Of a stretch of DNA of 64,000 bases, positions 37,363 to 38,227 are shown piece after piece. The DNA comes from a virus: positions 32,001 to 96,000 of IMG/VR virus record IMGVR_UViG_3300020057_000035. One strand, given 5' to 3'. Every line of letters starts with the position of its first letter. The first letter of the stretch is position 1. Made by a program: the position numbers and the translations under genes. The notes below the pieces were generated by a model. That model had not been told where the DNA came from, made no database searches, and saw only the letters and a program-made list of their open reading frames with translations.

Positions 37363-37438
37363 TGGAGCGAGATGCGAGGCTCGAACTCGCGACATTCTGT
37401 TCGGAAAACAGACACTCTACCAACTGAGTTAATCTCGC
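37363..37438 (-). tRNA. tRNA-Gly(TCC)
   Basis: GCGAGAT/ATCTCGC, TCTGT-TTTCCGA-ACAGA, GCGAG-TTCGAGC-CTCGC, TCCA. Confidence 0.92.
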
Positions 37439-38227
37439 AATATTAAATGTTTTTCTATTCTTTCTTTACCTAAATTAAAATATGTTTCATCTTTTTCTAT
37501 TAAAATATAATTTCTGTTTGTGTTTATTGCTGCTATTCCAGTACTACCACTACCTGAGCACGAATCCAAAATTACATCATGTTCATTTGTATATGTTTTT
37601 ACCAAATACTCAAGTAAGGCAACCGGCTTTTGAGTAGGATGAATAGACTTAACAGAAGATCCAGCATTAGAATATGTTAATATTGTTTTAGGATACCAAG
37701 TATCGTATATTTTATTAGTAGGAGCATTTGTTTTAACTCCTCCCATTATTTCAGTTCTTTTATACTCTGTAGTTTTTCTTATTTCAATTTTATCTTTTGG
37801 TCTAGGAACCATTTGAGGATTATATTTTATTTTTCCATCACCAAAAACAGATACATTTTCTGTTTGAGCCATCGGCCTATATTTAGCTACTAAATGTCCT
37901 CTCGCTGTTACTTTATCCCAAGTCCAATCATATCTATATTGCTCTACGTTGCTTAGTCTCAAATAACTACTAAATGGCTCTATGCCGAATAATACTATTG
38001 CTGAATTTTGTTTAATTATTCTTTTATATTGTTCCCAAAGAAGATCAAAAGGAATAATAATATCCCACCCACATTTTGTCGAACCAAATTCAGCCGTAGG
38101 GGAGGTCGCAAAGTATCATGTCAATACTTTTGTCTGCAATAAACTTCATAGCCTCCAAGCAATCAGCTTGAATAATGCTATTTGGTTTTACCTCCCCTAC
38201 GGCTAAGTCTCCATTAGTTAAAATCAT
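37429..38227 (-). CDS. Amino-methyltransferase (DLPY) interrupted by a stop and 10-nt gap at 38086-38095
   Basis: ORF1 ...ILCDLPYG*, ORF2 GSTKCGWDIIIPFDLLWEQYKR...HPTQKP...DSCSGSGST; collinear with the 33059 paralog. Confidence 0.85.

Follow-up and report, generated by a model that had tools for sequence, protein, structure and literature searches.

A 64,000-nucleotide (nt) stretch of viral DNA (IMG/VR record IMGVR_UViG_3300020057_000035, positions 32,001-96,000; hereafter called the window) was analyzed for an interrupted gene on its minus strand, at 38227-37429. Judged by its sequence, this gene is a phage beta-class N6/N4 DNA methyltransferase, and its reading frame is broken by a stop codon and a short insert. 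The break is probably crossed by a programmed translational hop from one glycine codon to another, which would restore the enzyme across the gap. In the window the candidate take-off and landing codons, GGC and GGU, can both pair with the same peptidyl-tRNA, as can those of the related genes (GGN, with AGC as the landing codon in five members). A stop codon, here UGA, would occupy the ribosomal A site at take-off, both flanks of the gap are collinear with one protein, and a conserved, covarying mRNA helix is tied to the gap.

On the minus strand the interruption reads ...DLPY-GGC-TGA-ATTT-GGT-TCG... (Table 1). The landing GGT at 38085-38083 opens a frame of 218 codons that begins with GSTKCGWDIIIPFDLLWEQYKR. 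The translated body was assigned to Pfam family PF01555 (N6_N4_Mtase) with a score of 87.5 bits (cut-off 26.7, E = 1.6e-24), and the DLPY motif sits in the part that precedes the gap. In all intact homologs, from viral contigs and from a large protein collection, D(L/P)PYG is followed by five residues and then WD. The insert in the window is therefore one of 10 nt, not a one-nucleotide error, which confirms the stop and 10-nt coding gap that an earlier note on this DNA had described. Among cultured phages the best match to the body was 53.5% identical.

The break is not an assembly artefact. The 45- and 177-residue pieces of the split gene were present on at least 10 contigs (JGI, Logan and ENA), and a contig from a second microbial-mat run spanned the gap with zero differences, so that an assembly error is excluded. 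A variant of the front piece (P0124) likewise ended in DLPYG followed by a stop. The runs listed as holding the stretch were microbial-mat DNA runs only. In X7, one of the microbial-mat runs, the Logan assembly is interrupted between 38091, where contigs end, and 38096, where they resume, which corresponds to the take-off and stop codons; such a hole in the contigs proves nothing, and it might represent population variation at the gap.

Two short protein-search matches (P0008 and P0028) start with an out-of-frame reading of DLPYG followed by TAA CTTA and GGA, and a recurrent layout was therefore suspected. The viral collection was scanned with three patterns, using a fixed 4-nt spacer, a variable gap, or the helix as an anchor. 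The pattern Tyr-Gly-stop-NNNN-Gly-(S/T)-T-x-C-x-W-D returned 11 loci, which were methyltransferases in every case. About 45 further loci were found with the variable-gap pattern, and five more, with AGC as the landing codon, with the helix-anchored pattern. The resulting family comprises 56 viral loci with the layout DPPY-GGN-stop-N(0-5)-GGN or AGC. Fifty distinct sequences with enough upstream DNA served as the set for family counts and for the alignment. Spacers of 0, 1, 2, 3, 4 and 5 nt occurred in 9, 5, 5, 18, 12 and 1 of these, respectively, and TGA, TAA and TAG were each represented among the stops; the step across the family is thus 6-11 nt, that is, 3-8 nt between the glycine codons. 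Eleven extra copies were found in a prokaryote genome collection, on small contigs from metagenome-assembled genomes, and a scan of the isolate genomes in that collection gave no family copy. A scan for the exact 15-nt gap sequence returned 49 chance matches encoding TAEFG and no methyltransferases.

The two halves of the gene occur in all three frame relations within the family, and in one member (L086, GGA TAA TTAA GGA) the +1 frame is closed by its own stop. Because of this mixture no single frameshift restores the family, and only a jump to the landing codon would restore every member. When the codon after Tyr-Gly was left free, a stop was found there at 47 of the 49 loci with an insert of 6-11 nt. 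The two loci with a sense codon instead (L152 and L153) lack both the helix and the N-terminal extension. Their inserts, which read DLPYG-G-G-TTAC and DLPYG-N-G-TTAC, fall at the same site, and the loop can therefore accommodate one or two additional residues. Spacers of 1, 2, 3 and 4 nt are found among genes whose front ends are close to that of the window gene, so spacer length varies freely while the stop and the helix stay. What the members have in common is a glycine codon and a stop, followed after a short spacer by a codon open to re-pairing by the same tRNA-Gly. A different arrangement was seen in three metagenomes (L007-L009, around position 2985), in which GAC CCT CCA TAA CTT TAC GGA places an in-frame stop within DPPY and the body is open. 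The break in these loci lies two codons earlier, the take-off would be from a proline codon, and the landing codon CTT is non-cognate. Their helix is displaced upstream along with the take-off site.

The earlier note had also reported a perfect 15-nt complement between the 5' region of the mRNA and the DLPYG codons. The same inverted repeat was recovered here (38190-38204 with 38092-38106), with codons near the start paired to the DLPYG codons in both the minimum-free-energy and the centroid folds (-55.2 kcal/mol, z = -6.56, equalled by none of 200 shuffles). The N-terminal extension of the window front end, AVGEVKPNS, is also present in gapped relatives. In nearly all gapped genes the 5' arm starts at -107, which is 35 codons before the take-off codon, and its partner runs from the Pro-Tyr-Gly codons through the second G of the take-off codon. 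In the alignment of the 50 sequences, 84.5% of the cells were paired, against 75.4% after shuffling and 39-47% when the partner was slid. Double-sided changes were counted in 88 cells, a number that none of 500 shuffles reached. Compensation is evident in individual pairs, with TAC/GUA in 33 cases versus TAU/AUA in 14, and in the pair types of single columns (GC 33 and AU 14; GC 37, CG 6 and UA 2; CG 21, AU 13, GC 5 and UA 5). Where the Tyr, Pro and Leu codons differ synonymously, the N-terminal extension shows matching V/I and E/Q/R/C replacements, which argues for selection on the RNA rather than on the protein. G-U pairs in the helix core, read on the sense strand, exceeded A-C pairs by 29 to 11, a bias consistent with folding of the sense-strand RNA.

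The helix is associated with the gap. Twenty intact homologs showed chance-level complementarity only (scores of 6-8 at scattered positions) and had short N-termini, and the two front-end relatives that were inspected, from Geobacillus phage GBK2 and Oenococcus phage Krappator149, are intact and carry no complementary arm. Among the genes with the commonest arm sequences, 26 of 27 were gapped. The remaining one (L144:1922-2051), which reads ...TDIPYGTTACKWD, was the only helix-bearing gene found without a gap and may be a revertant or a pre-gap form. With these comparisons, the survey proposed earlier, for homologs with a gap at this site and a covarying 5' arm, had a positive outcome. Sequence upstream of the 5' arm is also non-random: GGAG or GAGG occurred within 18 nt of it in 36 of the 50 sequences, compared with 5.1 expected. 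A Shine-Dalgarno-like function is suggested for this element, and in the window the 5' arm itself also holds GGGGAGGT. An inverton was considered as another source of the inverted repeat and was ruled out, since conserved motifs are encoded between the arms in the orientation that the segment now has.

Downstream of the gap, essentially every member has a reading frame that stays open over 200-258 codons. Between the closest gapped pair, L077 and L078/L079, the ratio of nonsynonymous to synonymous divergence (dN/dS) was 0.04 at a synonymous divergence (dS) of 0.14; more distant gapped pairs gave dN/dS values of 0.26-0.64 near saturation (dS 0.8-1.5). These values indicate purifying selection on the downstream frames. 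In the members whose halves are in frame, no start codon was found between the stop and the landing codon, and the first start codon in the window body is a TTG that lies 41 codons into the conserved domain. The second piece therefore has no start codon from which it could be made on its own.

In the proposed mechanism, the ribosome would arrive at GGC with UGA in its A site. The peptidyl-tRNA-Gly would then release GGC, the mRNA would slide by 10 nt, and the same tRNA would re-pair with GGU. Decoding would restart at UCG to give a single polypeptide, ...CDLPYG-STKCGWD..., collinear with the intact homologs and with SIDMILCDLPYGSTK as the predicted junction peptide. The helix is the putative stimulator. 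It would not be a classical downstream block, because its 3' arm would be inside the ribosome at take-off; on leaving the ribosome, this arm could anneal to the 5' arm, which would set it against the anticodon as a partner for the GG of the take-off codon and would draw the mRNA forward. If T4 mobA/gene 60 is taken as a guide, an endonuclease target within the conserved DNA that encodes DPPYGTTACKWD is probably disrupted by the insert, which would shield the target site of its carrier from cleavage. The carrier would thus be immune to cutting, and the hop would preserve the enzyme.

An endonuclease is indicated by the genes that neighbor the family. Directly upstream of about 35 of the 50 family genes lies an open reading frame (ORF) of 160-260 codons whose C-terminus follows the pattern ...PSLDHI.PK..GG...L.NLQF.SWFENR.K..M.Q.EW..LK.NI.EY.., and HNH, NUMOD3 and helix-turn-helix motifs were identified by Pfam in the upstream ORFs of the relatives. 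In the window no endonuclease ORF stands beside the interrupted gene. What is left is a remnant of 28 codons, the TGA of which overlaps the methyltransferase ATG and from which the catalytic part is absent. The gap and helix of the window are taken to be a retained relic, because the endonuclease gene has been lost there.

The extent of the putative mobile unit can be judged from sequence identities on either side of the gap. The front-end DNA of the window gene is 83% identical to that of L103, a member with a 3-nt spacer, and the bodies of the two are 59% identical as protein. The window body is 73% identical to its nearest intact homologs versus at most 63% to any gapped gene. For four pairs, identity was 0.8-1.0 up to the gap and 0.3-0.8 after it, as at a mosaic boundary. 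Since the front ends are conserved and identity falls after the gap, the gap marks the 3' edge of a cassette composed of endonuclease, front end, helix and gap. In L086 the endonuclease ORF opens with a short methyltransferase front-end remnant. Taken as a set, these sequences suggest that the front end, from start codon to DLPYG, belongs to a mobile HNH-endonuclease cassette family. Another configuration was observed at L085:162-2000, where two copies of front end, helix and gap, 1.6 kb apart, flank an HNH gene. Past ...GTTACKWDVVIPF, the first copy runs on into the endonuclease ORF of the HNH type, whereas a full methyltransferase body follows the second. The same run-on into an endonuclease ORF occurs in L136, after ...IPFN.

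Several points weigh against the hop. For every member of the family the support is at the level of sequence. In many members the two codons of the proposed hop do not have the same wobble base (GGC to GGA), and the five members that land on AGC would re-pair with two of three base pairs. The exit-side pulling model is borrowed from T4, where it is itself unsettled, and it has to accommodate a 3' arm that would be inside the ribosome at take-off. Selection is most strongly indicated by a single close pair, the other pairs being near saturation. The window copy could also be dispensable, as the window has lost the endonuclease and an intact paralog and a third methyltransferase are encoded by the same phage.

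The last of these points bears on an alternative that is unlikely but deserves consideration, namely that the gene is dead or dying. The insert would then be a cassette junction scar or a template-switch insertion that inactivated the methyltransferase, and the helix would serve endonuclease expression or mRNA stability, or would be an inverted duplication dating from the origin of the cassette. The position of the gap at the 3' edge of the cassette fits such a history, as do the loss of the endonuclease from a window that holds two other methyltransferase genes and the existence of one intact helix-bearing gene (L144). A template switch could also have produced the perfect 9-nt complementarity between the GCTGAATTT of the insert and a site 70 nt downstream, but this complement is absent from the relatives. 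A decaying gene is difficult to reconcile with two halves that are open in essentially all 50 distinct sequences, with the dN/dS of 0.04 between two gapped genes, or with a helix that covaries and shifts with the take-off site. The stop and the Gly-like landing codon are moreover retained while the sequence and length of the spacer drift.

Three other explanations keep the enzyme active by different routes, and each fails on family-wide features. A plain +1 frameshift of the prfB type at GGC-UGA-A, which would give DLPYG-EFG-STKCGWD with three extra residues, is very improbable. A one-base skip does restore the frame in the window, and +1 shifts are known to be promoted when a stop codon occupies the A site, but comparison with homologs gives an insert of 10 nt rather than 1 nt, the spacers of relatives range over 0-5 nt and all three frames, the +1 frame of L086 has a stop, and tRNA-Gly is unable to re-pair on GCU. 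Slightly less probable still is a two-piece enzyme, in which translation would end at UGA, the body would be made by re-initiation, and the DLPY-bearing peptide of 45 residues would assemble with it. Naturally split methyltransferases exist, and gene callers predict two ORFs here; the split, however, falls inside the catalytic loop, and neither the in-frame members, without an in-frame start between stop and landing codon, nor the window, with its first start codon deep inside the conserved domain, provide for re-initiation. The least credible of these is removal of the insert from the RNA as a 'mini-intron', through a helix-guided cut and re-ligation. The helix does join distant parts of the mRNA, and an RNA ligase gene (39150-39764) lies about 1 kb upstream in the window, which is not evidence shared by the family. 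No known mechanism excises 6-11 nt of variable sequence, however, the insert is not bracketed by the helix, and the constant features (Gly codon, stop, Gly-like codon) are of a kind read by ribosomes rather than by nucleases. The earlier note had left the choice among a hop, RNA-level excision and an intron scar; the comparative data favor the hop, and the mini-intron is unsupported. The surrounding HNH cassette had no place in that account. A recoded stop (for example, TGA read as Gly or Trp) was rejected, because it cannot restore the frame with 7 nt between the two Gly codons.

Table 1. Positions of the gapped methyltransferase gene, its putative recoding signals and neighboring genes in the window.
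Feature	Position	Strand	Description
Methyltransferase front end (ORF part 1)	38093..38227	-	ATG at 38227-38225; 45 codons to the take-off Gly; reads MILTNGDLAVGEVKPNSIIQADCLEAMKFIADKSIDMILCDLPYG; ends ...CDLPYG
Candidate take-off codon GGC (Gly of DLPYG)	38093..38095	-	GGN at this position in all family members
UGA stop, immediately 3' of the take-off codon	38090..38092	-	Stop present at 47 of the 49 insert-bearing loci (inserts of 6-11 nt)
4-nt spacer AUUU	38086..38089	-	Spacer range in the family, 0-5 nt
Candidate landing codon GGU	38083..38085	-	Helix-anchored scan with the landing codon left free: GGN at 21 loci, AGC at 5
Methyltransferase body (ORF part 2)	37429..38082	-	217 codons past the landing codon, plus stop at 37431-37429; PF01555
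5' arm of helix, AGCCGUAGGGGAGGU	38190..38204	-	Codons A-V-G-E-V; inverted-repeat pair, fold and covariation
3' arm of helix, ACCUCCCCUACGGCU	38092..38106	-	D-L-P-Y-G codons and first base of the stop; inverted-repeat pair, fold and covariation
GGAG, weak Shine-Dalgarno-like (putative)	38209..38212	-	5 nt upstream of the 5' arm
HNH homing-endonuclease remnant, TWFENIAKHAMTQLEWDILKQNINEYLL	38224..38310	-	Last 28 codons; aligns with C-termini of HNH/NUMOD3 ORFs of relatives
tRNA-Gly(UCC)	37363-37438		Overlaps the last 10 nt of the gapped gene, giving its last three codons and stop
tRNA-Thr	38366-38441		Just upstream of the HNH remnant
Intact PF01555 paralog	33059-33769	+	Uninterrupted
Third PF01555 methyltransferase	32434-33057	+	Uninterrupted; back to back with the 33059-33769 gene

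Some features of the window are not features of the family. Pairing between the two arms extends outward in the window to 38210 and 38086, with two G-U pairs and one C-A mismatch, so that the pairing through the whole gap claimed in the earlier note is present in this gene. As a family property it was rejected, the native flank duplex averaging chance strength (-3.5 kcal/mol, compared with -2.8 for cross-lineage and -3.0 for shuffled combinations). The flank duplex of the window measured -2.4 kcal/mol, and strong flank duplexes were confined to the L077 lineage and a small number of others. The downstream complement of the gap was likewise rejected as a family feature (mean z of -0.48, with 2 of 50 sequences below -2 and in inconsistent places). 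The overlap of the gene end with a tRNA-Gly, to which attention had also been drawn, is real. It is taken to be a coincidence of a tRNA-rich genome, because the surroundings of the gene in 47 related loci contained no tRNA-Gly. The window has twelve tRNA genes, spread over 1944-50902, and the tRNA-Thr and tRNA-Gly flank the gapped gene. The intact paralog at 33059-33769 has WDIIIPFDLLWEQYKRIIK in common with the gapped gene (48 of 57 nt identical), and the two genes are otherwise distant. The RNA ligase ORF (39150-39764, minus strand; PF09414, E = 1e-20) starts with the C-terminal end of an intein (...GILVHN, then S), for which the Intein_splicing match, at E = 6.5e-5, was under the Pfam cut-off. 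By these matches it looks like an intein-interrupted RNA ligase gene, and thus another selfish element in this genome.

A wider account of the family can be offered tentatively. It would be a large natural family of efficient hops of 6-11 nt, driven by zipping of the helix behind the ribosome, possibly aided by the Shine-Dalgarno-like GGAGG, and evolved as self-immunity of an HNH cassette in the most conserved block of the methyltransferase. The mobA/gene 60 strategy would then have arisen a second time, independently, and would rely on another RNA mechanism. If correct, the roughly 60 diverged members constitute a natural experiment on what the ribosome requires for take-off, slide and landing, with variation that covers spacers of 0-5 nt, three stop codons, near-cognate landing codons and a covarying helix. 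The family would also supply a compact cassette in which the proposal that exit-side pairing moves the mRNA forward could be tested, and it would make the joining of a homing endonuclease to a hop-over insert, placed in conserved coding sequence, a recurrent evolutionary solution. Phage methyltransferase repertoires would be under-counted, because gapped genes are annotated as two fragments or as pseudogenes.

To our knowledge, natural programmed bypassing is limited to very few systems, namely T4 gene 60 and its homologs, the byps of a yeast mitochondrion, and the candidate inserts in the Hau3 terminase gene. The literature search found no description of a methyltransferase bypass or of a gapped methyltransferase family. 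Intact PF01555 phage methyltransferases, such as the Geobacillus phage GBK2 methylase, share with the gapped genes the domain, the order of motifs and the conserved block noted above, but they are uninterrupted, carry no complementary 5' arm, and for the most part lack the N-terminal extension. As of a 2016 review, no natural hop over an in-frame stop was known (PMC5009743). Synthetic stop hops in E. coli, in which 9 nt specify one amino acid, occurred at a low level and on artificial sequences, and the family members with a 0-nt spacer (GGN-UGA-GGN) have an identical layout (PMC5009743). The terminase gene of Streptomyces phage Hau3 contains two 10-nt inserts that are candidates for bypass, and mass spectrometry of a UAA variant in E. 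coli detected a junction peptide ending in Gly (PMC10732093). As in the methyltransferases, these inserts break the frame and have no counterpart in homologs, and the codon after the take-off codon is slow or unreadable; the signals proposed are an internal Shine-Dalgarno-like sequence and local structure (PMC10732093). The Hau3 system differs in that it is triggered by a rare sense codon, UUA, with a link to host physiology, in that two or three such genes are known, and in that it has neither a homing endonuclease nor a covarying long-range helix (PMC10732093).

The closest parallel is with T4, in which the bypass insert of gene 60 guards its carrier from nicking by MobA in a conserved region that is otherwise intolerant of insertions (bioRxiv 10.1101/2022.08.31.505936, which cites Bonocora 2011). 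Pairing of the mRNA on the exit side was proposed as the forward driver in T4 gene 60 by Wills, Parsawar and Atkins (bioRxiv 10.1101/2024.12.09.627546). Both systems have a Gly take-off codon with a stop immediately after it, a landing codon matched or near-matched for the same peptidyl-tRNA, and a take-off codon inside a helix, with upstream mRNA pairing as the proposed driver in T4. In both, an HNH endonuclease gene lies directly upstream (as a remnant only in the window), and the insert, at the border of a mobile cassette, interrupts a strongly conserved part of an enzyme gene. The two share no sequence homology, the host gene being a DNA methyltransferase here and a topoisomerase in T4. 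The gap is 3-8 nt (a step of 6-11 nt), in contrast with 47 nt (a step of 50 nt) in T4, and is too short for a hairpin, so that no stem-loop forms within it; the helix is instead long-range and closes a loop of about 85 nt of coding sequence. T4 also has a nascent-peptide signal, of which none was identified here, and the methyltransferase hop is a prediction from sequence. A homologous gene 60 element was ruled out by the different gene (PF01555) and by the 6-11 nt step without an in-gap hairpin. By analogy, it seems likely that the gapped methyltransferase device works in the manner of T4 mobA/gene 60 without being homologous to that cassette.

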